From NCBI GenBank assembly GCA_964408025.1, contig CAYOXX010000002.1, positions 6,105 through 70,104 on the forward strand: a stretch of 64,000 bases of DNA, written 5' to 3'. Shown here piece after piece: positions 1,868 through 44,407 of this stretch (position 1 is the first letter of the stretch; the number at the start of each line of letters is the position of its first letter). Position numbers and translations under genes: made by a program. This stretch comes from an uncultured Acidobacteriota bacterium. GTDB lineage: Bacteria > Acidobacteriota > DATKUA01. The notes below the pieces were generated by a model. It made no database searches. It saw only the letters and a program-made list of their open reading frames with translations, and was not told the origin of the DNA.

Positions 1868-2043
1868 GACCCCTCCACTATGTAGCCTCTTCTCGTTGCT
1901 CCAACTGCGAATGCGTATCATAGCGGTTCGAATTTAGCCAGTCCAGCAGTCGGCTTGATTTGCAATCGATTCATTGCATTCTCCGCGCTCTTGGCGGAGA
2001 ATCAAACCGTTCGCACATGAACTAATCCCCGGAGGAGAAGCCA

Positions 2044-8142: not shown

Positions 8143-8151
8143 GAGCCTGCC

Positions 8152-9075: not shown

Positions 9076-10001
9076 ACCACGCGGTCGTAAGCGACAAGCT
9101 CACTAAACGATTCGGCGACTTCACCGCCGTCGACAACGTCTCGTTCGAGGTTCCGGTAGGCGAGATCTTCGGCTTCCTGGGCTCAAACGGCGCCGGCAAG
9201 ACGACCACGATACGGATGCTCTGCGGCATCATCGCTCCCAGCGAAGGGAGCGGCACCGTCCTGGGGATGGACATCGTCCGGCAGCGCCACCAGATCAAGG
9301 AGAATATCGGCTACATGAGCCAGAAGTTCTCCCTCTACAACGACCTCACGGTGCGTGAGAACCTGGAATTCTTCGCCGGCATGTACTCGTTCGCGGGCAG
9401 CCGTGCCGCCAGGATCGATGAGGCTCTCGAGACGACGGGCTTGCGCGACCGCGCCGGCCTGGTCACCGCCTACCTGCCGTTCGGGACCAAGCAGCGCCTC
9501 GCCTTCGCCTCGGCGATGCTGCACCGCCCGCGCATCGTCTTCCTCGACGAGCCTACAGCCGGAGTCGACCCGCGCGGCCGGCGGAAATTCTGGGAGCTGA
9601 TTCACCGGATCGCCTCCGAGGGTATCACCGTCTTCGTCACCACCCACTACATGGACGAGGCCGAGTACTGCCACAGGATAACGCTGATGGACGAAGGCAG
9701 GCTGCGCGCCGTCGGCACCCCGGCGCAGATGAAGCGGGACGTCATGAAGGGCACGATGCTGGAGATCTCCTGCGACGACCCGGCAGCCGCCCTGGGCGCC
9801 GTTAAGGAGGCAGGTCTGGGCGAGACGGCGCTCTTCGCCAACAAGATCCACCTCAACGTCACCGACGAGGCCTCGGGCAGGAAAGCGGTCGCCGGAGTCC
9901 TGGTAGCGGCCGGCATCGGCCTCGAGAAGGTCGAGACCGTCGCCCCGTCGCTGGAGGACGTCTTCATCAGCGTCCTCAGCGCGGAGGGAGGCGCGCCATG
10001 A
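9072..10001 (+). CDS. ABC transporter ATP-binding protein (like YbhF second NBD)
   Basis: Start MNHAVV with ATGA overlap; GSNGAGKT, degenerate signature LPFGTKQRL, FLDEPTAGVD. Confidence 0.92.
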   Translation: MNHAVVSDKLTKRFGDFTAVDNVSFEVPVGEIFGFLGSNGAGKTTTIRMLCGIIAPSEGSGTVLGMDIVRQRHQIKENIGYMSQKFSLYNDLTVRENLEFFAGMYSFAGSRAARIDEALETTGLRDRAGLVTAYLPFGTKQRLAFASAMLHRPRIVFLDEPTAGVDPRGRRKFWELIHRIASEGITVFVTTHYMDEAEYCHRITLMDEGRLRAVGTPAQMKRDVMKGTMLEISCDDPAAALGAVKEAGLGETALFANKIHLNVTDEASGRKAVAGVLVAAGIGLEKVETVAPSLEDVFISVLSAEGGAP

Positions 10002-11131
10002 GGCTGATCTGGACGCTCGCCATGAAGGAGTTCATCCACATCAGGCGCGACCCGCGGACGATGGCCTTCATCATCTTCCTGCCGATCATGATGCTGATCA
10101 TCTTGGGCTACGGCGTCAACTTCGACCTCAAGGACATCAGCCTCGCCGTCGTCGACTACGACCGCACTCCGGCCAGCCGCGAGTTCCTCGAGGAGATGAC
10201 CGCCAGCGGCTATTTCTATATCGATGCCTACTACGACTCGATTCGCGAGCTGGATCGCCTGCTCGATCTTCGCGCAGCGCGCGCCGGCGTGGTGATCCCG
10301 CGAGGCTTTCAGCGCGATCTCGAGCGGGGCGAAACGGCGAGCGTACAGTTCCTGCTCGACGGCAGCGACGGCAACACTGCCGCCATCGCCTACGGCTACA
10401 TCGCGGCTGTCTCAAACGGTTACACGTTGGATAAATTGCGCGAGCGTATGGTGGCGGCCGGCCTGGAGCCTCCGCGCGTGATGCCGACGGTCCAGGTTAA
10501 AAACCGCTACTGGTATAACCCGGAGCTCAAGAGCGCTAACTTCATCGTCTCGGGCAGCATCGCCATAATCATGATGATGATCGGCGCGGTGGTCACCGCC
10601 CTCACACTCGTGCAGGAGAAGGAGAGCGGCACCATCGAGCAGCTTATCGTCTCTCCCGTCAGGCCTTTTCAGGTGATCCTGGGCAAGGTTCTCCCCTACC
10701 TTTTTCTCTGCCTCATCGCCCTGCTGCTGGTCCTGGTGGCCGCCTACTGGGTCTTCGGCCTCGAGCTCAAGGGCGACTTGATGCAACTCCTACTGATGGC
10801 TCTCGTCTACGTATTCGGCGTCCTCGGTATCGGTATCTTCGTCTCATCCATCGTCGACGACATGGCCTCGGCGATGCTGTTGGCCGTCCTGCTCTCTATC
10901 CTGCCTTCGGTCTTCTTCTCCGGATTCGTCTTCCCGATACGCAACATGCCGCTGCTGCTGCAGCTGATCACTTACCTGGTGCCGGCCCGCTATTTCCTCA
11001 GTATCATCAGGGGGATATACCTCAAGGGAATCGGCATCGAGATCCTCTGGGGCGAGGTGCTGTTCCTGGTCGCCTTCGCCGTTGTGGTGTTCGGCTTCGC
11101 CTCAACTCGCTTCAAAAAGAGGCTGGATTAG
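9998..11131 (+). CDS. ABC-2 type permease (YbhS-like)
   Basis: KEFIHIRRD, DGSDGN, YNPEL, EKESGTIEQL, multiple TM helices. Confidence 0.9.
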   Translation: MRLIWTLAMKEFIHIRRDPRTMAFIIFLPIMMLIILGYGVNFDLKDISLAVVDYDRTPASREFLEEMTASGYFYIDAYYDSIRELDRLLDLRAARAGVVIPRGFQRDLERGETASVQFLLDGSDGNTAAIAYGYIAAVSNGYTLDKLRERMVAAGLEPPRVMPTVQVKNRYWYNPELKSANFIVSGSIAIIMMMIGAVVTALTLVQEKESGTIEQLIVSPVRPFQVILGKVLPYLFLCLIALLLVLVAAYWVFGLELKGDLMQLLLMALVYVFGVLGIGIFVSSIVDDMASAMLLAVLLSILPSVFFSGFVFPIRNMPLLLQLITYLVPARYFLSIIRGIYLKGIGIEILWGEVLFLVAFAVVVFGFASTRFKKRLD

Positions 11132-11133
11132 CG

Positions 11134-12261
11134 ATGCTAAGACGACTGTACTCGATGATGCACAAGGAGCTTAGGCAGGTCTTCCGCAACAAGCTCACAC
11201 TGAGGATGGTAATCTTCATGCCTATCATTCAGCTCATACTGTTTGGTTACGTCGCCATACTCGATGTCGACAACATCCCGACAGCGGTTATCGACTACAG
11301 TAAGAGTCCCCAGAGCCGCCGCCTGCTGGGCGACTTCGAGAACAGCGGTTACTTCAGGCTAACTCACTACATAGACAGCAAACGGGAGATCGACGGACTC
11401 CTCGACTGCGGAGAAGTCGACCTGGCGATCGTGATACCCGAAGACTTCGCGGTCCGCGTCGCCAACGGCGAGCCGACCGAGGTATTGGGAGTCATCGACG
11501 GCTCCGACTCGAACACCGCCATCACCGTCGGCAACTACTTCGTCGGAATCGCCACACGCTTCGCCATTAACGTCGCCGCGCGCGCCGTCGCCGACAGTAT
11601 TGAAGGTATAACCGTCCCACTGGAAGAACGTACCAGAGTTTTCTTCAATCCCACGATGGAGAGCATCTACTACCTGGTGCCGGGCATCATCGCCGTCCTG
11701 TTGATCATGCTGCTCATCCTGCTCTCGGCGATCAGCATCGTGCGCGAGCGCGAACAGGGGACGCTCGAGCAGCTGATGGTGACGCCGATCCGGATCACCG
11801 AGATGGTGATGGGCAAGACCATCCCCTTCATGCTCATCGGCTACGTGATCGTATGCCTGATCACCGTCGTCGGCACCCTCTGGTTCGGCGTGCCGATCCG
11901 AGGCAACCTCGGCGTCCTGATGGCCCTCAGCGGCCTCTACATGCTCTCGGCGCTCGGCCTCGGGATGCTGGTCAGCTCGCTGGCCCACACGCAGCAGCAG
12001 GCGATGATGCTCGCCATGTTCTTCATCATCCCGCAGATCCTGCTCTCCGGCTTTATCTTCCCGATAGAGAGCATGCCGGAAGTGTTGCAGTGGTTGACGC
12101 TCGTCATCCCGGCGCGCTACTTCCTGATAATTATCCGCGGCGTATTCCTAAAGGGGGTGGGATTCGCCGAGCTGATACCGGAAACGCTGGGGCTGGCCGT
12201 CCTGGCGGCCGCGATCTTCGGCCTCGCGATCTTCAGGTTCAGCCGCAGGCTGGAGCTCTGA
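11134..12261 (+). CDS. ABC-2 type permease (YbhR-like)
   Basis: KELRQVFR, DGSDSN, FNPTM, EREQGTLEQL, LSGFIFPIESMP. Confidence 0.9.
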   Translation: MLRRLYSMMHKELRQVFRNKLTLRMVIFMPIIQLILFGYVAILDVDNIPTAVIDYSKSPQSRRLLGDFENSGYFRLTHYIDSKREIDGLLDCGEVDLAIVIPEDFAVRVANGEPTEVLGVIDGSDSNTAITVGNYFVGIATRFAINVAARAVADSIEGITVPLEERTRVFFNPTMESIYYLVPGIIAVLLIMLLILLSAISIVREREQGTLEQLMVTPIRITEMVMGKTIPFMLIGYVIVCLITVVGTLWFGVPIRGNLGVLMALSGLYMLSALGLGMLVSSLAHTQQQAMMLAMFFIIPQILLSGFIFPIESMPEVLQWLTLVIPARYFLIIIRGVFLKGVGFAELIPETLGLAVLAAAIFGLAIFRFSRRLEL

Positions 12262-12312: not shown

Positions 12313-14745
<2,433 letters not shown>

Positions 14746-14845
14746 TGAATCCTCCGGATATCGGGCGAGCGCCTTCTGCTCGGCGCCTGTACTACAGCCC
14801 ACGGCCTGCTACTTCGGTAAGCCGGCCAACATGTATAGGTTAGGT

Positions 14846-15115
14846 TTACTTTCGCAGTTTTAACCGCTTCAGGATTTCGCGGTAGCGATTCACATCATTC
14901 GCCTTCATGTAGTCGAGCATACGGCGGCGCTGCCCGACCATCTTTAGCAGCCCGCGGCGGGAATGGTGATCCTTCTTGTGGGCCTTGAAGTGCCCCGATA
15001 GCTGATTGATACGCTCGCTCAGGAGCGCTATCTGCACTTCCGGGGAGCCGGTATCCATACCGTGAAGGCGAAACTTCTCTATTACCTCCGCCTTGTCTTC
15101 TTTGCTCAGTGGCAC
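14846..15115 (-). CDS. rpsO: 30S ribosomal protein S15
   Basis: [24 protein letters not shown]; canonical rpsO-pnp order. Confidence 0.98.
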
Positions 15116-15233: not shown

Positions 15234-16211
15234 TCAGGAGCGCGAGTCGCGGATGAGCCTCGCCACCTCCGGCACGACCTGGAAGAGATCGCCTACGATG
15301 CCGAAGTCGCAGTGCTGGAACAGCGGCGCGTCTGCATCCTTGTTGACCGCCACGATCGTCTTCGACGAGCTCATGCCGGCCAGATGCTGGATGGCGCCGC
15401 TGATGCCAATGGCTATGTAGAGGTCGGGCGACACGGTCTTGCCGGTCTGTCCCACCTGGTGCTTGTGGTCGATCCAGCCGGCGTCTACTGTGGCCCTCGA
15501 GGCGCCAACCGCCGCGCCCAGCGCGTCGGCCAGCTCGCGAATGAGTGCGTAATTTTCGGGGCCCTTGATGCCGCGGCCGCCGGAGACAACTATAGTGGCT
15601 TCTGCCACGTCGAGTTCGCCTTCCTCTGCGGCCACCAGCTGCACGCTCCCCGGATCGGCCCCGCTCATTTCGACCGCCAGCTCAACCAGCTCGGGATCGC
15701 CGGGCTCGTCCACCGGGGTTGCTGCGAAGACGTTGGGCCGCAGGCTCAGCATCAGCGGGTACGATCTCGAGCGGTAGTCGGCGAAGCACTTGCCGGCGTA
15801 GATCGGCTTGCGCACCCGCAGGGCGCTGCCGTCGGCCGCGATCGCCGTGACGTCGCTGCAGAGCCCGCAGTGCGCCAGGGCGGCGCACAGCGGCGCCAGG
15901 TCCTTGCCCATGGCGGTCGCCGAGAAGAGGACCAGCCTGGCGTCAAGCTCGGCCATCGCCTTGACGACGGCCTGCGCGTACGACCGGTTCCTGTAGTCCG
16001 CCAGATCCGGGCTGTCGGCGAGATAGATCTTCGCCGGCCCGTAGGCCTTCAGCTCTTCCGCCGGCGCTCCCAGACCGCTACCAACGGCCAAGGCGGCCAG
16101 TTGACCGCCGAGTTCCGCGGCCAGGGCACGGCCTTGGGTGAGGGCCTGCAGCGACTGCGGCTTTATCTGCCCGCCGCGCTGCTCTATGAATACTAGGATT
16201 CCATCCGGCAT
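15234..16211 (-). CDS. etfA: Electron transfer flavoprotein alpha subunit
   Basis: [33 protein letters not shown]. Confidence 0.95.
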
Positions 16212-16223
16212 CTCTCGAACCCC

Positions 16224-17018
16224 TCAGATCACTTTCGCTTCGTTTCTCATCCAGTCGACCAGCTTTGCCGCAGCGCCGGCGGGATCGTCTCCCGCCTCGA
16301 TTAAAATCCCCTCGCCGCGGGGTGGCGGCATCTCTATGCCCGTCAGCTCCATCGCCGCACCCTCCTCTGCGAGTATGCCGTGGTTGACGTCCAGGTCGGC
16401 GGGCGAGATCTCCTCGATCTGCGCCCGCTTGGCGGCCATGATCCCCTTCAGCGACGGGTAGCGTGGCTCGTTGAGACCCTTCTCGGCGCTTACGACGGCC
16501 GGCAGGGCCGCCTCTACCACTTCGGTCATCCCCTCGATCTGGCGGTGGGCGGTAAAACCGCCCCCGGCGATCTCCAGCTTGCTGACGGTCGTCACGACGG
16601 GCAGGCCGAGCAGGACTGCCAGCATCTGGGGCACCTGGCCGTTGTCGGTGCCGATCGCCTGCTTGCCGCAGATGATCAGCTCGTAGGGCCGGTCCTTGAT
16701 CGCCGCCGCCAAGAGCGAGGCCAGCGCGAAGCTGTCGCAGCCGGCCGCCTCCTCGAGCTTGATCCTCACCGCCGCGTCAGCGCCCATCGCCAGGCCGGTT
16801 CGCAGCGCCTGAGTCGAGCCGGCATCGCCTACCGTGATCACGGTGACGCTGCCCTCCCCGGCCTTCTCCTTGAGCTGGAGCGCCTCTTCGATGGCGATCT
16901 CGTCGAACGGGTTGACCTCCATCTTTACGCCGGTCAGGTCGAGAGAGCGGCCGTCGGCGGCGATCTTCACCCGGATTTCCGTCTCGGGAACCTGCTTTAT
17001 AGGCACGATTACATTCAT
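16224..17018 (-). CDS. etfB: Electron transfer flavoprotein beta subunit
   Basis: IKQVPET, NPFDEIAIEEAL, LAMGAD, GKQAI, NEPRYPSL. Start MNVIVP after GGAGG. Confidence 0.95.
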   Translation of the reverse strand: MNVIVPIKQVPETEIRVKIAADGRSLDLTGVKMEVNPFDEIAIEEALQLKEKAGEGSVTVITVGDAGSTQALRTGLAMGADAAVRIKLEEAAGCDSFALASLLAAAIKDRPYELIICGKQAIGTDNGQVPQMLAVLLGLPVVTTVSKLEIAGGGFTAHRQIEGMTEVVEAALPAVVSAEKGLNEPRYPSLKGIMAAKRAQIEEISPADLDVNHGILAEEGAAMELTGIEMPPPRGEGILIEAGDDPAGAAAKLVDWMRNEAKVI

Positions 17019-17106
17019 CCGGTATTCCTCCCTTAGGCTCTTGTTGGGATATCGCTGCGTCCGGGCTGCTCCGGCCCCGCCGCTCCCCATCCCCGCGAGC
17101 TTCCAA

Positions 17107-18363
17107 TTAGCCCGTGAAGCGCTTGAACAGGATCGCGGCGTTCGTCCCCCCGAAGCCGAAGGAGTTTGTCAGGGCGTAGTCGATCTTCATCTCCCGAACC
17201 CCCTCGGTGACGAAATCGAGGTCGCACTCCGGGTCGGGAACCTCGATGTTGATCGTCGGGTGAACCTTCTGCTCGCGGATGCTCAGCACGGTAACCGCGG
17301 TCTCGACGCCGCCCGCGGCCCCGAGCAGGTGGTCGATCTCCGATTTCGTGGAGCTGATCGCCAGCTTGTAGGCGTGCGCGCCGAAGGTCGCCTTGAGCGA
17401 GATCACCTCCGCGCGGTCCCCCGAGGGCGTGGCGGTGCCGTGAGCGTTTATGTAGTCGACTTCCTGCGGCCGGATGCCGGCGTCGTTGATGGCGTTGAGC
17501 ATTACGCGCCGCGCCCCGTCGCCGTCCTCGCACGGCGCCGTCATGTGGAAGGCGTCGGAGCTCATGCCGTAGCCGACAACCTCAGCGTAGATGTCTGCTC
17601 CCCGCCCGAGCGCGAACTCCAGATCTTCGAGCAGAACCAGGCCGGCGCCCTCGCCGATGACGAAGCCGTCCCGCTCGAGGTCGAACGGCCTGCTCGCCTT
17701 CTGCGGCTCGTCGTTGCGGGTAGAGAGCGCCCGCGCCGCGGCGAAGCCGCCGATTGCCAGCGGCGTTATGACGCTTTCCGATCCCCCGGCGATCATGGCC
17801 ACCGCATCGCCGCGCTGGATGATCTTGAAGCTGTCTCCGATGGCGTGGCAGCCGGTGGAGCAGGCGGTGCTGGTTGCGGAGTTGGGGCCGCGCATGTTGT
17901 ACTTGATCGACACCTGACCGGAGGCCATGTTGACAATCAGCGAGGGGATGAAGAAGGGCGAGAACTTCTTCCACGACTTGCCGTTCTGGCTGGCGTACAT
18001 CGCCTGATGCTGGCGCTCGATCACCGGCAGCCCGCCGATTCCGGAGCCGATGTAGACGCCGATGCGATCCCGGTTGTGCGGTGTAACCTGGAGCTTCGAG
18101 TCGTCCATAACCTGCGCCGCGGCAGCCATCGCGAACTGGATGAAGCGGCCCATCCTGCGCACCTCTTTGAAGTTCATGTAGAGCTTTGGATCGAAGTCCT
18201 TCACTTCGGCCGCGATGCGCACGGGCCAGCCTTCGGTGTCGAAGGTGGTTATCTCGCCGACACCGCTGCGCCCTTCCAGCAGGGCTTCCCAAGTCTCCCC
18301 GGTGGTGTTGCCGACTGGGGTGACCACGCCGAGTCCGGTTACGACAACTCTTCTGGCTTCCAC
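17107..18363 (-). CDS. fabF: 3-oxoacyl-ACP synthase II
   Basis: RRVVVTGLG, TACSTG, NAHGT, HLLGAAG, NSFGFGG; GTG start. Confidence 0.95.
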   Translation of the reverse strand: MEARRVVVTGLGVVTPVGNTTGETWEALLEGRSGVGEITTFDTEGWPVRIAAEVKDFDPKLYMNFKEVRRMGRFIQFAMAAAAQVMDDSKLQVTPHNRDRIGVYIGSGIGGLPVIERQHQAMYASQNGKSWKKFSPFFIPSLIVNMASGQVSIKYNMRGPNSATSTACSTGCHAIGDSFKIIQRGDAVAMIAGGSESVITPLAIGGFAAARALSTRNDEPQKASRPFDLERDGFVIGEGAGLVLLEDLEFALGRGADIYAEVVGYGMSSDAFHMTAPCEDGDGARRVMLNAINDAGIRPQEVDYINAHGTATPSGDRAEVISLKATFGAHAYKLAISSTKSEIDHLLGAAGGVETAVTVLSIREQKVHPTINIEVPDPECDLDFVTEGVREMKIDYALTNSFGFGGTNAAILFKRFTG

Positions 18364-18427
18364 TTCTGCTTTCCTCACGACGCGAGCCGCGAACAACCGA
18401 GTGCCCCGAGGGCCCGGCGGCTCGGCG

Positions 18428-18664
18428 TCAGTCCGCGTGCTGTTTGAGGTAATCGATGGCGTCCTGCACCTTGCCGATTTTCTCGGCGTCCTCGTCGGGA
18501 ATTTCCATGTTGAACTCCTCCTCGAACGCCATCACCAGCTCGACCGTGTCGAGCGAGTCCGCGCCCAGATCGTCGACGAAGTGAGCCTCCGGTGTTACTT
18601 CCTCGTCATCCACTCCCAGCTGCTCGACGATGATCTTTTTTACTCTTTCCTCGATAGTGGCCAT
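18428..18664 (-). CDS. acpP: Acyl carrier protein
   Basis: [14 protein letters not shown] phosphopantetheine site. Confidence 0.97.
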
Positions 18665-18739
18665 TTAGCAAACCTCCTCTGCTGTCTCGATTGCCTCGGA
18701 TGCCATTGCTTAGATTAAAAAACGCGACGGCCGCGGCCG

Positions 18740-19483
18740 TCACATGTACATCCCTCCGTTCACGTTCAGGACGGCGCCGGTGACGTACGCGGCGCCGTCC
18801 GAGACCAGGAAGAGAACCGCCCTGGCGATGTCCTCCGGCCGCCCCAGCCTCCCCAGCGGCACGTTGGCCATCAGGCGCTGGCGGATCTCGTCGGACAGCG
18901 ATTCGGTCATGGCGGTCTCGATGAAGCCGGGAGCGACGGCGTTGACGGTTATACCGCGCGACCCGAGCTCCCGCGCCGCGCTCTTGGTGAAGCCGATGAG
19001 GCCGGCCTTCGCCGCGCCGTAATTGGTCTGGCCCGGATTACCCATCTGGCCGATAACGCTGGCTATGTTTACTATGCGCCCGTAGCGGCGCTTCATCATA
19101 AAGCGCGAAGCGGCCTGGGTGCAATTGAAAACGCCGGTAAGGTTCACCGCCATCACGTCGTCCCACTGTTCCCGCTTCATCCGTACCAGAAGGTTGTCGC
19201 GCGCGATGCCCGCGTTGTTGACTAGGTGATCGAGGCGACCGAATTCCTCGACCACGGCCTCCACCGACCGGCGCGTGCTCTCGGCATCGGCGACATCGAG
19301 TGCGAGGGGCAGGGCCTGGCGGCCGAGCGAGCGCACCTCGCCGGCGACGCGCTCGACCCCGTCTTGCTGTACGTCGCCCAGCGCGACGTCGGCGCCGGCT
19401 GCCGCCAGCTCCAGGGCAATGGCGCGCCCGATCCCTTGCGCCGCCCCGGTGACAATCGAAACACGACCTTCAAGCTCTCCCAT
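18740..19483 (-). CDS. fabG: 3-oxoacyl-ACP reductase
   Basis: TGAAQGIG, NNAGIARD, NYGAAKAG, APGFIET. Confidence 0.95.
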   Translation of the reverse strand: MGELEGRVSIVTGAAQGIGRAIALELAAAGADVALGDVQQDGVERVAGEVRSLGRQALPLALDVADAESTRRSVEAVVEEFGRLDHLVNNAGIARDNLLVRMKREQWDDVMAVNLTGVFNCTQAASRFMMKRRYGRIVNIASVIGQMGNPGQTNYGAAKAGLIGFTKSAARELGSRGITVNAVAPGFIETAMTESLSDEIRQRLMANVPLGRLGRPEDIARAVLFLVSDGAAYVTGAVLNVNGGMYM

Positions 19484-19488
19484 CGCCG

Positions 19489-20430
19489 CTACTCCTCCAT
19501 CCGCAGTGCAGACAGCGTTGCCCCGAGCGACTCGACATCCTCGACGTTGAGGCAGGCTACCGACCGGTCTATCCGTTTAATGAGCCCGCAGAGAACCCTG
19601 CCCGGCCCGAATTCGACCACCGTATCGATTCCCATCTCCACGACGCGGCGTACCGTCTCCTCCCAGCGCACCGGCGACACGACCTGCTTAACCAGCCCCC
19701 GCCTGGCGGCCTCGCCGTCGCGCAGCAGCTCGACGTCGGCGTTGTTGACCAGCGGCACCGCCAGCGGCCCGAAAGGTATCGCGGCCAGGACGCCGCGCAT
19801 GCCGTCCTGGGCCGGCCTCATCAGGCTGCTGTGGAACGGCGCGCTCACCTGCAGCCGCAGGGCCCGCTTGGCCCCGCGCTTCCTGGCGATCTCAACCGCC
19901 CTGCCGACGGCGCCAACCTGCCCGGCGATCACTATCTGGCCGGGGCAATTGACGTTGGCCAGCTCGAGTACCTCGCCCTCGGCCGCCGCGCAGCAGATCG
20001 AGGCCACCTCCTCGGTACCCATACCGATGATCGCGGCCATCGCGCCCTGGCCGACCGGCACCGCCTCCTGCATCAGCTCACCGCGGCGCCGCACTGCGTA
20101 GGCAGCGTCCCCGAGGCCGAGGCAGCCGGCGGCCACCAGCGCAGAGTACTCGCCGAGGCTGTGGCCGGCGACCACGTCGGGCTTAATCCCCTCCGAGTCC
20201 ACGATCCGCCAGGCCGCGAGGCTGACGGTGAGTATCGCCGGCTGCGTGTTGGCAGTCAGGGAAAGCTCGCTCTCCGGCCCCTTGAAGCAGAGCCGGGCGA
20301 TCGGCAGGCCTAATCGCTTCTCCGCCTGCTCGAACGTCTCCCGCGCCTGGTGGTGGGCTCGGTAGAGCTCACTACCCATGCCGACGTACTGCGAACCCTG
20401 ACCCGGGAAGACGAATGCGAGTTTGCCCAT
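19489..20430 (-). CDS. fabD: Malonyl-CoA:ACP transacylase
   Basis: FPGQGSQ, GHSLGEY, VSAPFHS. Confidence 0.96.
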   Translation of the reverse strand: MGKLAFVFPGQGSQYVGMGSELYRAHHQARETFEQAEKRLGLPIARLCFKGPESELSLTANTQPAILTVSLAAWRIVDSEGIKPDVVAGHSLGEYSALVAAGCLGLGDAAYAVRRRGELMQEAVPVGQGAMAAIIGMGTEEVASICCAAAEGEVLELANVNCPGQIVIAGQVGAVGRAVEIARKRGAKRALRLQVSAPFHSSLMRPAQDGMRGVLAAIPFGPLAVPLVNNADVELLRDGEAARRGLVKQVVSPVRWEETVRRVVEMGIDTVVEFGPGRVLCGLIKRIDRSVACLNVEDVESLGATLSALRMEE

Positions 20431-20433
20431 CTG

Positions 20434-21594
20434 CTATCCTTCGTGCCTGGCTGCCTCCTTGATCAACGCCAGCGCGATCGTGTTGCGCTGAATCTCGTTG
20501 GTCCCCTCGTAGATCTGCAGGATCTTGGCGTCGCGCATCAGCTTCTCCACCGGGTACTCGCGCATGAATCCGTAGCCCCCGAACACCTGCACCGCGTTGA
20601 TGGCCGCCCGCATTGCCACGTCGGAGGCGAAGCACTTGCTCATCGCCGCCTCCTTGGCGAACGAGCGCACGCCGCGGTCGATGTTGAGGCAGGTGATGTA
20701 GACCAGCGCCCGTGCCGCTTCGGTCTCGATTGCCATATCGGCCAGCATGTGCTGGACTGCCTGGAAGGCGGCTATCGGCTGGCCGAACTGGCGGCGTGTG
20801 CGGGCGTAGCCGACGGCGTGGTCCAGGGCCCCCTGCGCGAGACCAACCGCCTGGGCGCCGACGCCCACGCGCGCCCTGTCAAGCGTGCGGACGGTGGTCA
20901 GCAGCCCCGTTCCGGGGCGGCCGAGTATGTTCTCTGCCGGGATGCGGCAGTCTTCGAAGATCACCTCGCGCGTGGAGGAGCAGCGGATACCGAGCTTCTT
21001 TTCTTTGGCGCCGAAGCTCAGCCCCGGACTCTCGGCCTCGACTAGGAGAGCGCTGATGCCGCGGGCACCCCTAGTCTTGTCGGTCACGGCGATCACCGTG
21101 TAGAGGTCGGCCTCGCCGCTGTTTGTGATCCACTGCTTGCAGCCGTTGAGCACCCATTCGTCGCCGTCACGCGCGGCGGTGGTTCTGATGGCCATGGCGT
21201 CGCTGCCGGCCTCCGCTTCCGTCAGGCAGAAGGCGGTCAGGTGCTCACCGGCGGCTATTGGCGGCAGGTATCGCTTCTTTTGCTCTTCGGTGCCGCTGAA
21301 CAGTAGCGGGAAGGCCCCCAGGGCGTTCGCCGCGTAGCTTGTGCTGACACCGAGGCAGGCCTTGCTCAGCTCCTCGGTGACGATGGAGAGTTCGGTCATG
21401 CCACCGCCGAAGCCGCCATACTCCTCCGCCAAGTAGACGCCGAGCAGCCCGGACTTGGCCAGGTGCTCGAGAATCCGCCGCGGGAACTCCTCCTCCTCGT
21501 CCAGGGCGGCGGCGACGGGACGGACCTCGCTCTCCGCTATCCTGCGCGCCAGATTCTGGATCTCCTGCTGCTCTTCCGTAAAGAAGTATTCCAT
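20434..21594 (-). CDS. Acyl-CoA dehydrogenase family flavoprotein (short-chain/butyryl-CoA type)
   Basis: FCLTEAEAGSD, KQWITN, EKKLGIR, RRQFGQPI, QVFGGYG, catalytic QIYEGTNEIQR. Confidence 0.93.
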   Translation of the reverse strand: MEYFFTEEQQEIQNLARRIAESEVRPVAAALDEEEEFPRRILEHLAKSGLLGVYLAEEYGGFGGGMTELSIVTEELSKACLGVSTSYAANALGAFPLLFSGTEEQKKRYLPPIAAGEHLTAFCLTEAEAGSDAMAIRTTAARDGDEWVLNGCKQWITNSGEADLYTVIAVTDKTRGARGISALLVEAESPGLSFGAKEKKLGIRCSSTREVIFEDCRIPAENILGRPGTGLLTTVRTLDRARVGVGAQAVGLAQGALDHAVGYARTRRQFGQPIAAFQAVQHMLADMAIETEAARALVYITCLNIDRGVRSFAKEAAMSKCFASDVAMRAAINAVQVFGGYGFMREYPVEKLMRDAKILQIYEGTNEIQRNTIALALIKEAARHEG

Positions 21595-21614
21595 TACCTC
21601 TCCCCGCTCTTTTC

Positions 21615-22598
21615 CTAAAGGCGCAGCAGCATTGCGCCCCAGGTGACGCCGCCCCCGAAGGCGGTCAGCAGCACGAGGCTGCCCTCACCGATGCGCCCGG
21701 AGAGCAGGTTCTCGTGCAGCCCAATAGGAATGGTCGCCGAGGAGCTGTTGCCGATGCGGTCGATGTTGGAGTAGACAACATCCGGGCCCAAGCCTAGCCG
21801 CTGGGCGACGCCGTCGGTGATCCGCTGGTTCGCCTGGTGCGGAATTACCAGGTCGAGGTCCTCGGGGCCGTAGCCGGCCTCCTTGAGGACCTGCTTGCTG
21901 GAGTCGGCCATCGCCCTCACGGCAACCTTGAACAGCTCGTTGCCGCGCATCTTTATGTAGTGTCGGCCGCTGGCCAGTACCGCCTCGCTGAATGGCTCAC
22001 GCGTACCGCCGGCCGGCACGTTGAGCACGTCCGCGAAGTTGCCGTCGCTGCCGATCGTGGAGGCCAGGAAACCGCGGCCCTCGGGCACGCGGCCGACCAC
22101 GGCGGCGCCGGCGCCGTCGGCGAAGAGGACGCATGTGGCGCGGTCGGTCCAGTCGGTCCACTTGCTGAGTAGCTCGCTGCCGATCACCAGGATCTTCTCT
22201 GAGGATCCGTCCCTGACGAACTTTTCAGCGACCGAGAGGCCGTAGATGAAGCCGCTGCAGGCGGCCGAGATGTCGAAGGCGGCGGCGTTGGAGGCGCCCA
22301 GTTCGGCCTGGATCAGGCAGGCTGTAGCGGGCAACGGCATGTCGGGCGTCACCGTGGCGCAGATCAGCATATCGAGCTCGTCGGCGCCTACGCCGGACCG
22401 CTCGAGAGCCTCGCAGCCGGCCCTGATGGCGAAGGTCGAGTTGCACTCGTCGGGGCGGGCTATCGTCCGCTGGCGGATGCCGGTTCGCGAGCGGATCCAC
22501 TCGTCGCTGGTATCGACTATCTTCTCAAGATCGAAATTGGTCACTATGTTGTCGGGCAGCGCCGCGCCGGTCCCGATGATCCCCGCGTTGAAGGCCAA
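21615..22598 (-). CDS. fabH: 3-oxoacyl-ACP synthase III
   Basis: TSDEWIRSRTGI, AACSGF, PHQAN, GNSS, AFGGG. Confidence 0.95.
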   Translation of the reverse strand: MAFNAGIIGTGAALPDNIVTNFDLEKIVDTSDEWIRSRTGIRQRTIARPDECNSTFAIRAGCEALERSGVGADELDMLICATVTPDMPLPATACLIQAELGASNAAAFDISAACSGFIYGLSVAEKFVRDGSSEKILVIGSELLSKWTDWTDRATCVLFADGAGAAVVGRVPEGRGFLASTIGSDGNFADVLNVPAGGTREPFSEAVLASGRHYIKMRGNELFKVAVRAMADSSKQVLKEAGYGPEDLDLVIPHQANQRITDGVAQRLGLGPDVVYSNIDRIGNSSSATIPIGLHENLLSGRIGEGSLVLLTAFGGGVTWGAMLLRL

Positions 22599-22616
22599 TC
22601 TGCTTCTCCTGATTGT

Positions 22617-23627
22617 TCAGAGGATGTGCTGTGCATACAGTTCGGAAATGCGATCGCTGATGCGTTCGCTGGCCCTGTGGTCGTAGAAGTCGGCAGCGAC
22701 TAGGATGGCGTTCTTGATCGCCTGGGGGTTGGAGCGGCCGTGGCAGATGATGCTCACTCCCTTGACGCCGAGCAGCAGCGCGCCGCCGTACTCCGTGTAG
22801 TCGAACTTCTGCTTCAGGCGCTTGAAAGACCTCCTCATCATCAGCGCGGCGACCTTGGTCACCCAGGTGCTCAGCAGCTCCTTCCTGAGCACAAAAAAGG
22901 CCAGCTCGGCGATGCTTTCGGCGGCCTTGAGGACGGCGTTGCCGGTGAAGCCGTCGGTGACGATGACGTCGCACTGGCCGTTGAAGAGGTCGCGGCCCTC
23001 GACCGGGCCGATGAAGTTGAGGCTGGTCCGCTCGAGCAGCGCCACCGTTTTTCGCACCAGCTCGTTGCCCTTGGTGGCCTCCTCGCCGTTGCTGAGCACC
23101 CCGACCCTGGGCCGCTTGATCTGCAGGATGTCCTCGGCGAAAATGTTGCCCATGATCGCGAACTGCACGAGGTTGCTGCTGCGGCAGGTAACGTTGGCGC
23201 CGACGTCGAGGAAGACGGCCGGCTTGCCGTGCGGCGTCGGCACGGTCAGGGCCAGCGCCGGGCGCTTGACCCCCGGCAGGCTGCCGACGACGATCTTGGT
23301 GATCGCCATCGCCGCGCCGGTGTGGCCGGCGGTGACGATGCCGTGCGCCTTGCCCTCGCGCACGAGCCGCGTGCAGACGCGAATCGAGGAGTCCCGTTTC
23401 GACCGCAGGGCGGTCAGAGTCGGCTCGTCCATGCGAATAACTTCGGAGGCGTGCACCACTTCGATCGGCAGGCCGTCGGCGTCGTGCTTCCCGAGCTCTT
23501 GGCGAACCGCATCCTCGTCGCCCACCAGGATGGTGTGAACTCCGGCATCGCGAGCCGCGGCTATCGAGCCCAGGACCGGATTAGCGGGAGCGTAGTCGCC
23601 CCCCATCGCGTCAACGGCTATGATCAT
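22617..23627 (-). CDS. plsX: Phosphate acyltransferase
   Basis: IAVDAMGGDYAP, DVGAN, DGFTGNAVLK, ICHGRS. Confidence 0.96.
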   Translation of the reverse strand: MIIAVDAMGGDYAPANPVLGSIAAARDAGVHTILVGDEDAVRQELGKHDADGLPIEVVHASEVIRMDEPTLTALRSKRDSSIRVCTRLVREGKAHGIVTAGHTGAAMAITKIVVGSLPGVKRPALALTVPTPHGKPAVFLDVGANVTCRSSNLVQFAIMGNIFAEDILQIKRPRVGVLSNGEEATKGNELVRKTVALLERTSLNFIGPVEGRDLFNGQCDVIVTDGFTGNAVLKAAESIAELAFFVLRKELLSTWVTKVAALMMRRSFKRLKQKFDYTEYGGALLLGVKGVSIICHGRSNPQAIKNAILVAADFYDHRASERISDRISELYAQHIL

Positions 23628-23676
23628 CTATTTTTACCTCCCCCGGATTATCTGCAGCCCCCCGCGGACCAGCGTA

Positions 23677-23859
23677 TCATTCTTCTTCCGTCTCCACCAC
23701 GACACGGCCCTTGTAGTAGCCGCAGCTCGGGCAGGCATGATGCGGGAGTTTCAACTCGTAGCAGTTGGGGCATAAGGAAAGGCCGGGCGCCTGCAGCCGG
23801 TCGTGGCTGCGCCGGCGGTCGCGGCGGCCCGTCGCGTTACGACGTCTGGGGTTTGGCAT
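23677..23859 (-). CDS. rpmF: 50S ribosomal protein L32 (zinc-ribbon type)
   Basis: Basic N-terminus, CPNC..PHHACPSCGYYKG; position before plsX. Confidence 0.95.
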   Translation of the reverse strand: MPNPRRRNATGRRDRRRSHDRLQAPGLSLCPNCYELKLPHHACPSCGYYKGRVVVETEEE

Positions 23860-23907
23860 TGCCCTTCTCTCTGCGCTCGGGCTGTCGCGGAATCGGCCTG
23901 TACCGCG

Positions 23908-24438
23908 TCACGCTCCGAACAGCTTTTTCTTGATCTCCTTGAGAACCAGCAGCCGATCGTCGACCCTACCGTCCGGGCAGTCGCAGGGCCCCTCGTTAAG
24001 ATCCCTGCCGCAGACCTGGCAGAGGCCTTTGCAGTCGTCGGAGCAGAGTATCTTCATCGGCAGCGCGAGCACCACCTGCTCGTCGATCACCTGGCGCAGG
24101 TCCAGCGTGTCCAGGTAGGAGGCCACGTTCATGTCCTTGTCGGCGAGTTCTACATCAACCTCACCGGCCGGCATCCGATCCCGGGGGATGAATACCAGGT
24201 CGATCTTCCGTTCCAGCGTGTGTTCGAAGGAGCGCAGGCAGCGATGGCAGGTGAGCGTCAGGCTCGCCCTAAAGGAGCCTTCGAGCTTGAAATCCCTATC
24301 CTTGCCGGTCAGAACCAGATCGATAGCAACCGGTTCGCGATAGCCGACACCATCCATCGGATGGCGCTCGCCGCCCATGGCGACGGCCTGCTCGAGCCGG
24401 ACGGTCTGGTTCAGTAACTTGTTGAGTTCAATAACCAT
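23908..24438 (-). CDS. yceD: DUF177/YceD family protein
   Basis: CHRCL and LCSDDCKGLCQVCG motifs; upstream of rpmF. Start MVIELN. Confidence 0.9.
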   Translation of the reverse strand: MVIELNKLLNQTVRLEQAVAMGGERHPMDGVGYREPVAIDLVLTGKDRDFKLEGSFRASLTLTCHRCLRSFEHTLERKIDLVFIPRDRMPAGEVDVELADKDMNVASYLDTLDLRQVIDEQVVLALPMKILCSDDCKGLCQVCGRDLNEGPCDCPDGRVDDRLLVLKEIKKKLFGA

Positions 24439-24464
24439 TTCAACCCGGCCCCAAAATGCGCGAC

Positions 24465-24494
24465 ACGGTAGCACGCGGGTTTTTTCATTGTCAA
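24465..24494 (-). promoter_or_regulatory. Sigma70-like promoter of the yceD-rpmF-fab-etf operon
   Basis: On the minus strand: TTGACA, 18-nt spacer ending TGC, TACCGT. Confidence 0.5.
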
Positions 24495-24713
24495 GAGTTG
24501 GCACTTTCGAGCGCCCTGCAACAACCGCACACAATAAAGCGGCCCTTCCTGGTATCGCCGGATCGCACCGAGTAAACCCGCTCGCTCTGGCCGTGAGCGT
24601 GTTCACCTGGAACGCCCTTGAATCGAATATCATTGGACTTCCGCCTGCGGCGTGGTCGCATCGCCGCCCCTCGCCCCTTTGCCACCCTTTTCACTTAATA
24701 GACAATTCGATAA

Positions 24714-26775: not shown

Positions 26776-27672
26776 TCAGGCGATCCGGTCCGCTTTCTTG
26801 GTCAGGGTAACCTCGTTGCCGGCGTCGTTATACCTCATCTCGTCGACGAAGAACAAGGAGAGGACGATGCCGCGCCCCGATTCGCTCAGCAGGTCGCCGG
26901 CGTCCGCCGAGGCCAGCACTCCGCGCCAGTCGAAGCCCTTGCCCTCGTCCGCAACTCTGAACTCCACGCCTTCGGGACTCAGTTCGTATGCGATCCTCAC
27001 CCTGCGTTCGGCAAACCTGGGATCGCTCCGCCTCCTGGCAATCAGACTTTCGAGGCGACCCAGTTCGCGCGCCCTCATTTTCTCATCGTAGCTGATCTCG
27101 AGGTTGCCGTGCTCGATCGCGTTCCCGATCATCTCCGCCAGAGCGGTCTCGATCCGCTCGACGGAGGTGAAGTCGAACAGCAGCGACAGCGAGCGCCCCA
27201 GATCGCGGACAACGGCCGGGATGAGCGACGGGTCGCTGGGGATCTCCAGCGTGCGCGACTCCTCGCGCAGAATCCCCTCGGTCACCAGATCGAGCTCCCG
27301 CGCCGCGGAGACGGCAACCAAGCCGATGAGAATGCGCTCCAGCTCGCCCAGGTCGATCGGCTTCTTGAGGTAGTTACTGGCGCCGGCTCGCAGGGCCTCG
27401 ACGGCCAGCGATTCGCTGCCGTGGCCGGTTACGATGACGACGCTGGTCTCTCCGCTGATCTTCTTGATCCGGCGCAGCAGCTCGAGGCCGTTCATCTCGG
27501 GCATGCGCACGTCGGTGACCACGATCTTGTAGCGCCGGCGCTCGAACTCGCGCAGTGCCTCTGCGCCGTTCCCCGCCGGTGTGACCTCGTATCCCTCCTC
27601 CGCCAGGAACTCGCAGAGCTCGGTCAGGGTTGCCGGCTCGTCGTCGACGACAAGGATGGACGTAGCGCTCAT
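26776..27672 (-). CDS. Response regulator with C-terminal RsbW/SpoIIAB-like HATPase domain
   Basis: REC (ILVVDDE, TDVRMP, YLKKP); EMIGNAIEHGN, DEGKGF, GRGI. Start MSATSI overlaps the upstream stop. Confidence 0.85.
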   Translation of the reverse strand: MSATSILVVDDEPATLTELCEFLAEEGYEVTPAGNGAEALREFERRRYKIVVTDVRMPEMNGLELLRRIKKISGETSVVIVTGHGSESLAVEALRAGASNYLKKPIDLGELERILIGLVAVSAARELDLVTEGILREESRTLEIPSDPSLIPAVVRDLGRSLSLLFDFTSVERIETALAEMIGNAIEHGNLEISYDEKMRARELGRLESLIARRRSDPRFAERRVRIAYELSPEGVEFRVADEGKGFDWRGVLASADAGDLLSESGRGIVLSLFFVDEMRYNDAGNEVTLTKKADRIA

Positions 27673-29243
27673 CTCGAGGCTCTTTCGTCCTGCGACGGCG
27701 TCTCGTCGGCTACCGGCAGCTTGATGCGGAAAATAGTGCCTTCCATCTCCGCGCTGGAGCACTCGATGCCGCCGCCCATGTCGCGCAGGATGCTGTAACT
27801 TATCGAGAGCCCCAGCCCGGTTCCCGAGCCCACCTCCTTGGTGGTGAAGAACGGCTCGAAGATCCTCTCCAGAACCTCCGGGGGCATGCCGCAGCCGTTG
27901 TCGCTGAACTCCACGACCACAAAGTCGCCCTCCGGATGGCGGGCGCGAATCTCGAGACGCTTACGATACGAGACGTCGGTTTCGCCCAGCCTCTCCTCCT
28001 TGAAATCGAGGGCGTCTCGAGCATTGGCCATGAGGTTGATGAAGACCTGCTCGAGCCGCGTCAGCTCCGTCCGCACTGGCGGCAGGTCGGGGGGGAAGTC
28101 GGCTACCAGCTCGATACCTTGCAGGCGGACCTGCTCGCCCAGCAGTGTCAGAACACCGTCCAGGGCCTCTTTAAGCTGGACGGCGCTGGTCCTGACGCCG
28201 TTCTTGCGCCCGAAGCCGCGCAGGTGGTCGATAATCAGCGTCGCCCGATTGAGCTGGTCCCTGATCAGAAACAGCTTGTCGCGAAAGAACTTCTTGTCCA
28301 GCTTGCGAGTGAACAACCGCTTGTTCAGCCGTTGGGTCACGATCTTGATAGTGTTGAGCGGCTGGCTTAGTTCGTGGGCGATCCCGGTGGCCATTTCGCC
28401 AAGCGTGGCGAGCTTGCCCGCCTGGATCAGCTCCATCTGCTTCTGCTCCAACTCGCTCTCCATCCGCTTGCGCTCGCTGATGTCGCGCATGACGACCACG
28501 TACTGGAAGCCGGAAGCCTCCTCAGCCGATGAGAAACTGATTTCCAGAGGGACACGCCTTCCGTCGGCCGCGACCACCTCAAAATTTATTGTGCGGCCAA
28601 CCAGCAGATCAAGTTCCGGCCCGCTGCCCAGGGCCTCGTTAAGCTCGCCCTTGCGCGCCAACACAGCCGCCATGTCCAGCCCGATCGCATCTTGCCGGGG
28701 GATGCCTAATATCCTTTCGATGGCGGAGTTGGCGAAGGTAATCTTCCCGGTCGAGTCAAGCCCGATGATCGCCTCGAAGGTGCTCTCCGTCAGCACGCGG
28801 TAGCGCTTCTCCGAAAGCTCCAGTTGATGCTGCAGCTCTTCCCGCTCATCCCGGCTGCGCTTCTGGGCTACGGCGTTGCGGATGGCGTTGGCCAGCCGTG
28901 CGATGTGGGCCGAGCTGATGTCCTTGACGAAGTAATCCACAACGCCTATACGGAAAGCCTCAGCGGCCACCTCCTCACTCCCCCAGCCGGTCATGAAGAT
29001 CACCGGGACGCGCCAGCCGGCTTCCTTGATCCGCTTCAGCAGCCTTAATCCGTCCAGGCCGGCGGAGAGCTCATAGTCGGCCAGGACGAGGTCGATTCCG
29101 CCCTCGCCTAGGATGCGTAGGCAGTCGTCTGCACGGGCAACCCACTGGATGGAAATCGAGCTGTCCTCCCGCCGAAGCTGGCGGGAGACGACGTCGAAAT
29201 CGAACTCCGAGTCGTCCACCATCAGCACGTGAATTTCGGACAT
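27669..29243 (-). CDS. Hybrid sensor histidine kinase (REC-PAS-HisKA-HATPase)
   Basis: N-terminal REC, PAS (FANSA..RDISERK), AHELSQPL, NARDA, DNGCG, FFTTK, GTGLGL. Confidence 0.92.
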   Translation of the reverse strand: MSEIHVLMVDDSEFDFDVVSRQLRREDSSISIQWVARADDCLRILGEGGIDLVLADYELSAGLDGLRLLKRIKEAGWRVPVIFMTGWGSEEVAAEAFRIGVVDYFVKDISSAHIARLANAIRNAVAQKRSRDEREELQHQLELSEKRYRVLTESTFEAIIGLDSTGKITFANSAIERILGIPRQDAIGLDMAAVLARKGELNEALGSGPELDLLVGRTINFEVVAADGRRVPLEISFSSAEEASGFQYVVVMRDISERKRMESELEQKQMELIQAGKLATLGEMATGIAHELSQPLNTIKIVTQRLNKRLFTRKLDKKFFRDKLFLIRDQLNRATLIIDHLRGFGRKNGVRTSAVQLKEALDGVLTLLGEQVRLQGIELVADFPPDLPPVRTELTRLEQVFINLMANARDALDFKEERLGETDVSYRKRLEIRARHPEGDFVVVEFSDNGCGMPPEVLERIFEPFFTTKEVGSGTGLGLSISYSILRDMGGGIECSSAEMEGTIFRIKLPVADETPSQDERASR

Positions 29244-31009: not shown

Positions 31010-31143
31010 TTGGGACAGACAACCGTCTTGGAATAATACATCTTACTCATAATATTGCACTTACGAATTAGCGGGTGGCTGTCCCTGTTTTCTGCGCTTG
31101 TCGTTCGCTCCGGCCACCGCTACAATCGCAACCGAGGTATCAA

Positions 31144-34090: not shown

Positions 34091-34172
34091 TCCTATCTCG
34101 GTCGGATATCCTTGGAACTCTTGCGCCGATGCCCTAAACTAGCGAACCGTCGATAACGAAAGGTATCGAGTC

Positions 34173-34418
34173 ATGTGCGTTGCCGTGCCGATGAAGCTTA
34201 CCAGCCTGGACGGCCACAACGGCGTCGCAGAGACGGGCGGCGTCAAGTTGTCAATAAACACCATGCTGCTGCCCGACGCCAAGCCTGGTGATTACGTAAT
34301 CGTACACGCCGGCTTCGCCATCCAGCACCTGGACGTCGAGGAGGCGGAGCGGACGCTGGAGCTGATCCGCGAGCTGGCCGAACATGAAGGAGACAAAGAG
34401 GACACGGAGAGCGGATGA
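34173..34418 (+). CDS. hypC: Hydrogenase assembly chaperone
   Basis: MCVAVP, GDYVIVHAGFAI. Confidence 0.96.
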   Translation: MCVAVPMKLTSLDGHNGVAETGGVKLSINTMLLPDAKPGDYVIVHAGFAIQHLDVEEAERTLELIRELAEHEGDKEDTESG

Positions 34419-40844: not shown

Positions 40845-40870
40845 CAAACGGCAAGCGAAGGTAAAAAGTC

Positions 40871-44396: not shown

Positions 44397-44407
44397 CTCT
44401 ACCCCCT

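Follow-up and report, generated by a model that had tools for sequence, protein, structure and literature searches.

This work concerns a fatty-acid synthesis operon in a 64,000-nucleotide stretch of DNA (hereafter the window) from contig CAYOXX010000002.1 of an uncultured Acidobacteriota bacterium. Two parts of the operon are at issue: a flavoenzyme of the acyl-CoA dehydrogenase (ACAD) family, encoded between fabH and fabD (20434-21594, minus strand, 386 residues), and an electron transfer flavoprotein (Etf), encoded behind fabF (etfB, 16224-17018, 264 residues; etfA, 15234-16211, 325 residues; both minus strand). We believe the best-supported reading of the ACAD is that it serves the type II fatty-acid synthase as an Etf-fed reductase of enoyl thioesters of acyl carrier protein (enoyl-ACP), and we consider the chances for and against that reading to be about equal. 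Reduction of enoyl-ACP sets the pace of fatty-acid synthesis in bacteria and has been studied intensively as a drug target. To our knowledge, the enoyl-ACP reductases described so far are only those of the short-chain dehydrogenase/reductase (SDR) type, FabI, FabL and FabV, and those of the FabK type. The ACAD and Etf of this sediment bacterium are the best candidate for a fifth kind because its genome shows none of these four. We found no description of a reductase of the ACAD/Etf kind in the open full-text literature (subscription journals and supplementary files lay outside the search), and a term search of a 2022 review of bacterial enoyl reductases (PMC9260719) gave no hit for acyl-CoA dehydrogenase, Etf, electron transfer or flavoprotein.

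In the scheme we propose, EtfAB would hand electrons to the ACAD, which would use them to reduce trans-2-enoyl-ACP to acyl-ACP. This would be the usual ACAD reaction in reverse, in the direction taken on enoyl-thioesters, with CoA esters as substrates, by ACAD-Etf systems such as butyryl-CoA dehydrogenase (Bcd), CarC and acryloyl-CoA reductase. The electrons could reach the Etf from three catabolic ACADs that share the genome's only Etf, or from an unrecognised Etf reductase linked to NAD(P)H or quinol. We infer the ACP thioester as substrate, the reductive direction and the Etf as electron donor from the observations that follow.

The first of these is the gene order. Open reading frames (ORFs) of the minus strand were named by Pfam and NCBIfam profile searches and read yceD-rpmF-plsX-fabH-ACAD-fabD-fabG-acpP-fabF-etfB-etfA, followed by rpsO and pnp. 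The ACAD gene is separated from fabH by 20 nt and from fabD by 3 nt. The original prediction, made from the sequence alone, had claimed this order on one strand, these two gaps and the lack of fabI, fabK, fabL and fabV in the cluster, and the ORF calls and profile names agree with it on every count. Since plsX, fabH, fabD, fabG, acpP and fabF are co-oriented and each scores above its NCBIfam cut-off, the cluster is a type II fatty-acid synthase operon. The etfBA pair lies 3.3 kb from the ACAD gene, with fabD-fabG-acpP-fabF between them. As read from the sequence, the start codon of etfB is the ATG at 17018; a GGGAGG ribosome-binding site precedes it, and the fabF stop lies 88 nt away. A hairpin scan found no terminator-like site in that 88-nt gap. 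Three sequencing runs labelled metatranscriptomic, and flagged as 'probably DNA', contain exact contigs of 150-300 nt on etfA, etfB, fabD, the ACAD gene, fabG and the plsX-fabH junction, and none of the contigs in those flagged runs bridges fabF and etfB.

The second observation is that the step in question has no recognisable enzyme in the assembly. The type II synthase is otherwise complete, with FabH, FabD, FabG, AcpP, FabF and one FabZ, the last being the single FabZ/FabA-family gene in the genome, 5.6 kb upstream on the same contig. The original prediction had proposed looking for a known reductase elsewhere in the genome, and profile searches of the 3.47-Mb assembly (162 contigs, 92.7% complete) found none of FabI (NF005717), FabK (TIGR03151), FabL (NF005975) or FabV (NF010177). 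The best match to the FabI model, at 80 bits, is a generic SDR. For FabL the best match is 179 bits against a cut-off of 328, and FabG itself scores 157. The FabK model matches PyrD only, at 21 bits, and the nitronate monooxygenase (NMO) family to which FabK belongs is represented only by a 37.6-bit match in a 505-residue ORF. The FabV model matched nothing; the same model gave three FabVs above 520 bits in relatives, hence it is functional. Finally, for all nine PF13561 proteins of the genome, neither FabI nor FabL is among the best 25 family names.

The ACAD itself has the three-domain architecture of its family (N-terminal helical, middle beta, C-terminal helical), with PF02771, PF02770 and PF00441 matched at full length (120.5, 94.4 and 165.8 bits). 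The catalytic glutamate that the original prediction placed in a YEG motif is indeed kept: IYEGTNEIQ aligns to the same motif in 8i4p, at the position used by the medium-chain and short-chain acyl-CoA dehydrogenases (MCAD and SCAD) and by Bcd, and Y362, E363 and G364 are invariant in an alignment of 51 fab-operon ACADs. The best solved relatives are 8i4p, 7w0j and 5ol2_C, the Bcd of C. difficile. The nearest named families and structures are acryloyl-CoA reductase (NF042972, 434 bits), Bcd (5OL2_C) and CarC (6FAH_C), all of them ACAD-Etf systems that work reductively.

This ACAD recurs in fatty-acid synthesis operons of other phyla. A scan for relatives, limited to one genome per species, gave 80 loci with ACADs of 56-67% identity, mostly from Nitrospirota, Thermodesulfobacteriota and 'delta proteobacteria', Omnitrophota, Elusimicrobia and metagenome-assembled genomes (MAGs) of Clostridia. 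The ACAD lies within a fab operon in 49 of the 80, in slots that differ (after fabH, plsX or fabF), usually with etfB-etfA behind it. Four further loci read ACAD-etfB-etfA-fabD, one has a divergent fab cluster 3 kb off, and the remaining 26 have other contexts. These other contexts are of a housekeeping kind: hpt-PTPS-pmbA in Thermodesulfovibrionales-like MAGs, and miaB/pgsA/recA or spoIIR in Clostridia. Pfam likewise names housekeeping neighbours of the ACAD in four Clostridia and Elusimicrobia loci. A tblastn search of loci L011-L090 with the thiolase and hydratase of the window genome found no butyrate-pathway genes beside the ACAD.

One arrangement among the Thermodesulfovibrionales-like MAGs deserves separate mention. 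At L011:7001-11682, as well as in L040, L051 and L061, the ACAD gene, etfB, a ferredoxin-fused etfA and fabD stand together outside any fab operon. In L011, panD (aspartate decarboxylase) comes after fabD, and hpt-PTPS-pmbA lies upstream of the four genes both there and in L051.

In a quick IQ-TREE analysis of 121 ACADs, all hits of at least 56% identity form one clade (SH-aLRT 99) of 90 rows from several phyla, 58 of them in fab operons. The window ACAD groups with its two family relatives (SH-aLRT 99), and the three other ACADs of the window genome fall outside the 90-row clade. The fab-operon members are highly conserved, with a mean column identity of 75% across 51 sequences. Residues G93, Q154, H282, N371, M344 and M352/353 are specific to the clade, being at least 90% conserved in its 90 members and shared with at most 25% of 30 paralogues; H282 is replaced in the paralogues by Phe or Trp. 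No rule at the level of sequence tells CoA substrates from ACP substrates. A predicted complex of the ACAD dimer, FAD and AcpP scored 0.00 in two runs made without controls, and we count it neither way.

All 40 genomes behind loci L011-L050 carry a member of the ACAD clade, and these were searched with the four reductase models. No true FabI and no FabV was found in this panel. FabL exceeds its cut-off in two of the genomes and a FabK-like protein reaches at least 270 bits in five; weaker NMO or FabL-like matches (95-230 bits) occur in 19 more, and in some of those seven as well. At the thresholds used, the other 14 of the 40 match none of the four families. Two of the 14 are complete chromosomes: G013, where the ACAD and etfBA lie inside the fab operon (L023), and G021 (L031). 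It is these two complete chromosomes that are the evidence least affected by gaps in assembly.

The Etf partner differs between these phyla and the window. A DGDTAQVGP-type stretch is given, in the available text of the Ldh-EtfAB paper, as the conserved b-FAD recognition motif that non-bifurcating Etfs do not have (PMC9232219). DGDTAQVGP is present exactly in 47 of the 48 EtfBs encoded beside the ACAD in the 80 loci, and all six of the EtfAs examined from those pairs carry an N-terminal ferredoxin domain. The window EtfB contains NPFDE, and in place of the DGDTAQVGP of bifurcating EtfBs it has GTDNGQVPQ, so that three of nine positions are alike. None of the fabF-linked EtfBs of its phylum has DGDTAQVGP; the lineage reads like xGxDxxxVGx. 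The phylum also has a third, canonical set of EtfBs, whose motif is DDxGxxQTG-like and whose only matches among solved structures are non-bifurcating. Since the b-FAD motif is missing from the window EtfB, we consider bifurcation between NADH and ferredoxin unlikely here.

The original prediction had called this EtfB non-bifurcating in appearance, with NPFD and without DGDTAQVG. The motif criterion, as far as the available text of the Ldh-EtfAB paper (PMC9232219) gives it, supports that part of the claim, but the Etf does not look like a plain canonical one. Against solved structures the window EtfB scores 157 bits with Paracoccus 1EFP_B, 137 with the human protein and about 115 with bifurcating EtfBs (5OL2_B, 115). 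The window EtfA is nearest to the EtfAs of bifurcating systems, with 252 bits for CarE (6FAH_A), 236 for 5OL2_A and 189 for 1EFP_A. The sister EtfB of G065, from an identical operon, is about equally close to both kinds (163 bits with CarD, 155 with 1EFP). A look-up of the window EtfB in the Atlas gave generic Etf clusters only. Because the scores are mixed in this way, we treat the window Etf as a putative separate lineage of mixed character that fails the motif test for bifurcation.

Within the phylum the window EtfB was searched in 40 relatives, only two of which belong to its family and one to its class. G066, an unpublished genome, enters no count, so that the panel consists of 39 relatives and the window genome. 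Kin in this panel are not independent, so the counts are to be read as patterns and not as statistics. An EtfB of at least 41% identity lies directly behind fabF in 17 of the 39 relatives, from 12 families, or in 18 of 40 genomes with the window genome included. The full arrangement of the window recurs in both same-family relatives and in the same-class one; others read plsX-ACAD-fabG/fabD-...-fabF-etfBA, or have fabF-etfBA with no ACAD in the operon. The synteny on which the original prediction relied is therefore conserved far beyond the window genome, both in the 49 of 80 ACAD loci within fab operons and in these 17 relatives. Orthologues of the ACAD (59-82% identity; the next best at most 53%) occur in nine relatives, and all nine have fabF-etfBA. 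Counting the window genome, 10 of the 18 genomes with fabF-etfBA have a member of the ACAD clade, against none of the 22 without it.

The known reductases are spread over the same panel as follows. Among the 22 genomes without fabF-etfBA, FabI reaches at least 260 bits in 16, a FabK-like protein at least 285 bits in two, and FabV is found in three; one has a FabI fragment only. Among the 18 with fabF-etfBA, 11 have FabI (one genome), a FabK-like protein (seven, one at only 225 bits) and/or a FabL-type protein (five). We considered dismissing 'FabI-like' matches of 131-158 bits as noise and rejected this, as they are FabL-type genes. In the remaining seven, from five families, no known reductase is seen: the window genome, G041, G047, G053, G055, G071 and G072. 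The comparison is thus 7 of 18 with fabF-etfBA against 1 of 22 without it. We also note that in two genomes (G059:C2:3162922-3164648 and G076:C7:188009-189756) a FabL-type gene (363-364 bits) adjoins a FabK-like gene (328-343 bits), away from the ACAD-bearing fab operon.

Several points weigh against an enoyl-ACP reductase of this kind, and it is important to set them out together. The anti-correlation with known reductases that the original prediction expected is only partial: 7 of the 10 ACAD carriers in the phylum, including the same-family relative G042, also hold a FabL or FabK-like gene, and therefore the ACAD is not a simple replacement of the known reductases. Conversely, G047, G053, G055 and G072 have fabF-etfBA and no known reductase, and have no member of the ACAD clade; G047 and G055 have one distant ACAD each. 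The window genome has exactly one etfBA pair, the one behind fabF, and four ACADs. The other three stand with genes for enoyl-CoA hydratase, thiolase-like proteins and methylmalonyl-CoA mutase, or alone on a short contig. Because the sole Etf must also serve these three catabolic ACADs, its place behind fabF need not mean a synthetic role. No donor for reducing a non-bifurcating Etf was found in the genome. Nor is the window ACAD shifted to the basic side of its paralogues in a way that might mark docking of ACP: its net charge is -9, the clade mean -3.4 and the mean of the paralogues -6.9. For every member of the clade the proposed role is a prediction. The reductase could also be hiding in plain sight, as the genome has five proteins of the medium-chain dehydrogenase/reductase (MDR) family, two of them quinone-oxidoreductase-like, and eight further SDR-family proteins, and a quinone-oxidoreductase-like MDR or an SDR could be an unrecognised one. 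With 92.7% of the genome in 162 contigs, its gene could also be unassembled, and in G042 there is a FabL-type gene of 312 bits, just below the cut-off of 328.

These points lead to the strongest of the alternatives, which is that there is no functional link at all. The ACAD and Etf would then be ordinary catabolic enzymes for acyl-CoAs derived from amino acids or fatty acids, they would sit in and behind the fab operon for historical reasons, and enoyl-ACP would be reduced by an enzyme of the SDR or MDR type that is unassembled or has escaped recognition. The single Etf shared with three ACADs in a hydratase, thiolase and mutase context fits this, as do a window rich in peptidase and histidine-catabolism genes, the FabL-type gene of the same-family relative, the two quinone-oxidoreductase-like MDRs and the incomplete assembly. 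We nevertheless think it unlikely. The linkage of ACAD to fab genes arose in different slots, with two Etf lineages, and in several phyla; the fab-linked ACADs form a clade of their own apart from the catabolic paralogues; and two complete chromosomes carry the module and show none of the four known families at the thresholds used. The FabL-type gene of G042 (L197, G042:C50) can be followed further. Its right-hand neighbours map to contig C37 of the window genome, where the unbroken contig has a 1302-residue ORF (C37:18804-24611), so that the syntenic site lacks the gene, which could nonetheless lie in the unassembled 7%.

A second alternative is that the ACAD and Etf supply primers, acting on enoyl-CoA or acyl-CoA with short or branched chains and in this way producing or trimming the acyl-CoA on which FabH starts; the reduction of a branched enoyl-CoA would be one example. 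The gene does lie directly behind fabH, its nearest solved relatives are of the short-chain, Bcd and SCAD kind, and comparison of residues and charge found no ACP-binding feature in the protein. However, related operons also place the ACAD after plsX with no adjacent fabH, or after fabF, and in no locus examined does a thiolase, hydratase or hydroxyacyl-CoA dehydrogenase stand beside it. Primer supply would also leave the missing reductase step unfilled, and we regard it as distinctly improbable. The weakest alternative is an oxidative role, in which the ACAD would dehydrogenate mid-chain acyl-ACP to trans-2-enoyl-ACP for isomerisation toward unsaturated fatty acids and pass the electrons to Etf: it has in its favor that a non-bifurcating-type Etf is the normal acceptor of oxidative ACADs, that the genome has only one FabA/FabZ-family gene, and that FabX of H. 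pylori, with FMN and oxygen, is described in the available text as a flavoenzyme running this step backwards on acyl-ACP (PMC8626469), but we give it little credence since neither ETF:quinone oxidoreductase (ETF-QO; PF05187) nor another outlet for reduced Etf was found in the incomplete window assembly, the same ACAD clade pairs in other phyla with the bifurcating-type, ferredoxin-fused Etf that solved systems use reductively, and the missing reductase would stay unexplained. Across the own-phylum panel, whose assemblies are also incomplete, ETF-QO has no match in 13 of the 18 fabF-etfBA genomes, against matches that reach at least 65 bits in 15 of the 22 others.

If the Etf-fed reductase is accepted, a broader claim can be made, which we put forward more tentatively and at somewhat less than an even chance. 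There would be a fifth class of enoyl-ACP reductase with a mechanism of its own, an Etf-fed ACAD, using a bifurcating, ferredoxin-fused Etf in most anaerobic phyla. In the phylum of the window, a third, fabF-linked Etf lineage without the b-FAD motif would take its place, and the one Etf pool of the cell would feed electrons from catabolic ACADs or another donor straight into fatty-acid synthesis. What is new in the window is this fabF-linked lineage of non-bifurcating type as the partner, in place of a bifurcating Etf. Such a class would explain lipid synthesis in the many anaerobes that have no recognisable reductase, a group that makes up 14 of the 40 genomes from other phyla and 7 of the 18 fabF-etfBA genomes examined here. 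Lipid synthesis would thereby be coupled to flavin-based electron transfer and, in lineages other than that of the window, to the reduction of ferredoxin, where the bifurcating version would save energy as lipids are made. The enzyme would also be insensitive to inhibitors aimed at FabI or FabK.

The remaining genes of the operon, all on the minus strand, are as follows. The operon opens with yceD (DUF177, 23908-24633; PF02620, 104.8 bits over residues 117-235), called as the longest ORF with an uncertain start that may lie later (the original prediction took 24494), and rpmF for ribosomal protein L32 (23677-23859; TIGR01031, 75 bits). Next come plsX for the phosphate acyltransferase (22617-23627; TIGR00182, 364.9 bits against a cut-off of 243) and fabH for ketoacyl-ACP synthase III (21615-22598; NF006829, 414.7 against 249). 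Behind the ACAD gene lie fabD for malonyl-CoA:ACP transacylase (19489-20430; TIGR00128, 337.3 against 261) and fabG for 3-oxoacyl-ACP reductase (18740-19483; TIGR01830, 336.6 against 298). The acyl carrier protein gene acpP (18428-18664; NF002149, 137 against 106) encodes a DSL motif that is invariant in the acpP alignment, and fabF for ketoacyl-ACP synthase II (17107-18396; TIGR03150, 611.2 against 494) has an uncertain start, its match beginning at residue 15. EtfB is named by PF01012, and EtfA, which has no N-terminal ferredoxin domain, by PF01012 and PF00766. The downstream boundary is rpsO (14846-15115; PF00312), which lies outside the system and is followed by pnp (12313-14802; TIGR03591, 986.6 bits). 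At the fabG stop, 5' of acpP, a consensus scan alone identified a terminator- or attenuator-like hairpin with a T-run (18722-18745, minus strand; a 10-pair stem with six G-C pairs), the sole strong one that the scan found. It may set the ratio of acpP to fabG transcript.

The rest of the window contains genes for formiminotransferase-cyclodeaminase (194-1921, minus strand), an M28 peptidase (2044-3777) and an aromatic amino-acid/histidine ammonia-lyase (3790-5325, minus strand), and there are further peptidases (S9, M12B and two M14) at 38835-46714. These peptidase and histidine-catabolism genes point to a peptide-degrading lifestyle. Just downstream of pnp, on the opposite strand, an efflux-type operon (6512-12261) encodes a TetR regulator, an HlyD-type fusion protein, an ABC ATPase and two ABC-2 permeases, all co-directional. 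A receiver domain fused to an anti-sigma-type HATPase_c_2 kinase (26776-27762, minus strand) overlaps a receiver-PAS-histidine-kinase hybrid (27669-29243, minus strand). Hydrogenase maturation genes (hypB-like, hypF and hypD) occupy 31075-35512, and two tandem proteins of about 1000 residues, each with a CarboxypepD_reg domain and an outer-membrane beta-barrel, lie at 53256-60048 and would fit an acidobacterium. Pfam names no domain in the large neighbouring ORFs at 47811-51483 and 60328-63681.

It remains to compare the proposed reductase with the systems it most resembles. FabI, FabL and FabV (SDR proteins) and FabK (an NMO, TIM-barrel flavoprotein) catalyze the reaction proposed for the ACAD. 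FabK is often found in the operon slot beside fabD, and the window ACAD also adjoins fabD. The ACAD fold is unrelated to any of theirs, however, and it would use FAD and a protein electron donor instead of NAD(P)H directly. That an ACAD fold can accept acyl groups bound to a carrier protein is indicated by the NCBIfam family names of MbtN (acyl-ACP) and of RedW and PigA (prolyl groups on peptidyl carrier protein). Unlike the proposed enzyme, these are oxidative and belong to secondary metabolism, and the window ACAD falls far under their cut-offs (MbtN, 86.2 against 700 bits; RedW, 278 against 650; PigA, 242.8 against 500). FabX, the decanoyl-ACP dehydrogenase/isomerase of Helicobacter pylori, is also a flavoenzyme of fatty-acid synthesis that works on the acyl-ACP/enoyl-ACP couple outside the four classical reductases. 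According to the available text it differs in being an NMO-family protein with FMN and a [4Fe-4S] cluster, in working oxidatively with oxygen as acceptor and in using no Etf (PMC8626469).

The closest likenesses are to the three reductive ACAD-Etf systems. In CarCDE of Acetobacterium woodii (6FAH), CarE is the best solved match of the window EtfA (252 bits), CarC matches the ACAD at 312.5 bits, and CarD is the best match of the G065 sister EtfB (163 bits). In contrast to the window proteins, CarE has an N-terminal ferredoxin domain and CarD has the b-FAD motif, and the substrate of CarCDE is phenylacryloyl-CoA. Acryloyl-CoA reductase (AcrABC) of Clostridium propionicum is a reductive ACAD-Etf system said, in the part of the source available, not to bifurcate (PMC9232219). 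AcrC (433.8 bits against a cut-off of 640) and AcrA (261.5 against 600) are the best NCBIfam names for the ACAD and EtfA, both below cut-off, and for EtfB the AcrB family (124.9 against 475) is second to NF040731 (159.5 bits). No window protein reaches a family cut-off here, substrate and gene context differ, and the Etf of C. propionicum is described as a close relative of bifurcating ones, whereas the window EtfB is nearer to those of Paracoccus and human. Bcd-EtfAB (C. difficile, 5OL2; A. fermentans, 4L1F and 4KPU) differs from the window system in several respects. The window EtfB lacks DGDTAQVGP, fabD-fabG-acpP-fabF separate etfBA from the ACAD gene, the surrounding genes are those of fatty-acid synthesis and include no crotonase, hydroxybutyryl-CoA dehydrogenase or thiolase, and the proposed substrate is an ACP ester and not a CoA ester. 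Nevertheless, the window ACAD is of the same sub-type as Bcd (398.6 bits with 5OL2_C, 367 with 4L1F_A), the window EtfA is close to 5OL2_A (236 bits), and Bcd is physiologically what we propose the window ACAD to be, an Etf-fed reductase of enoyl-thioesters.

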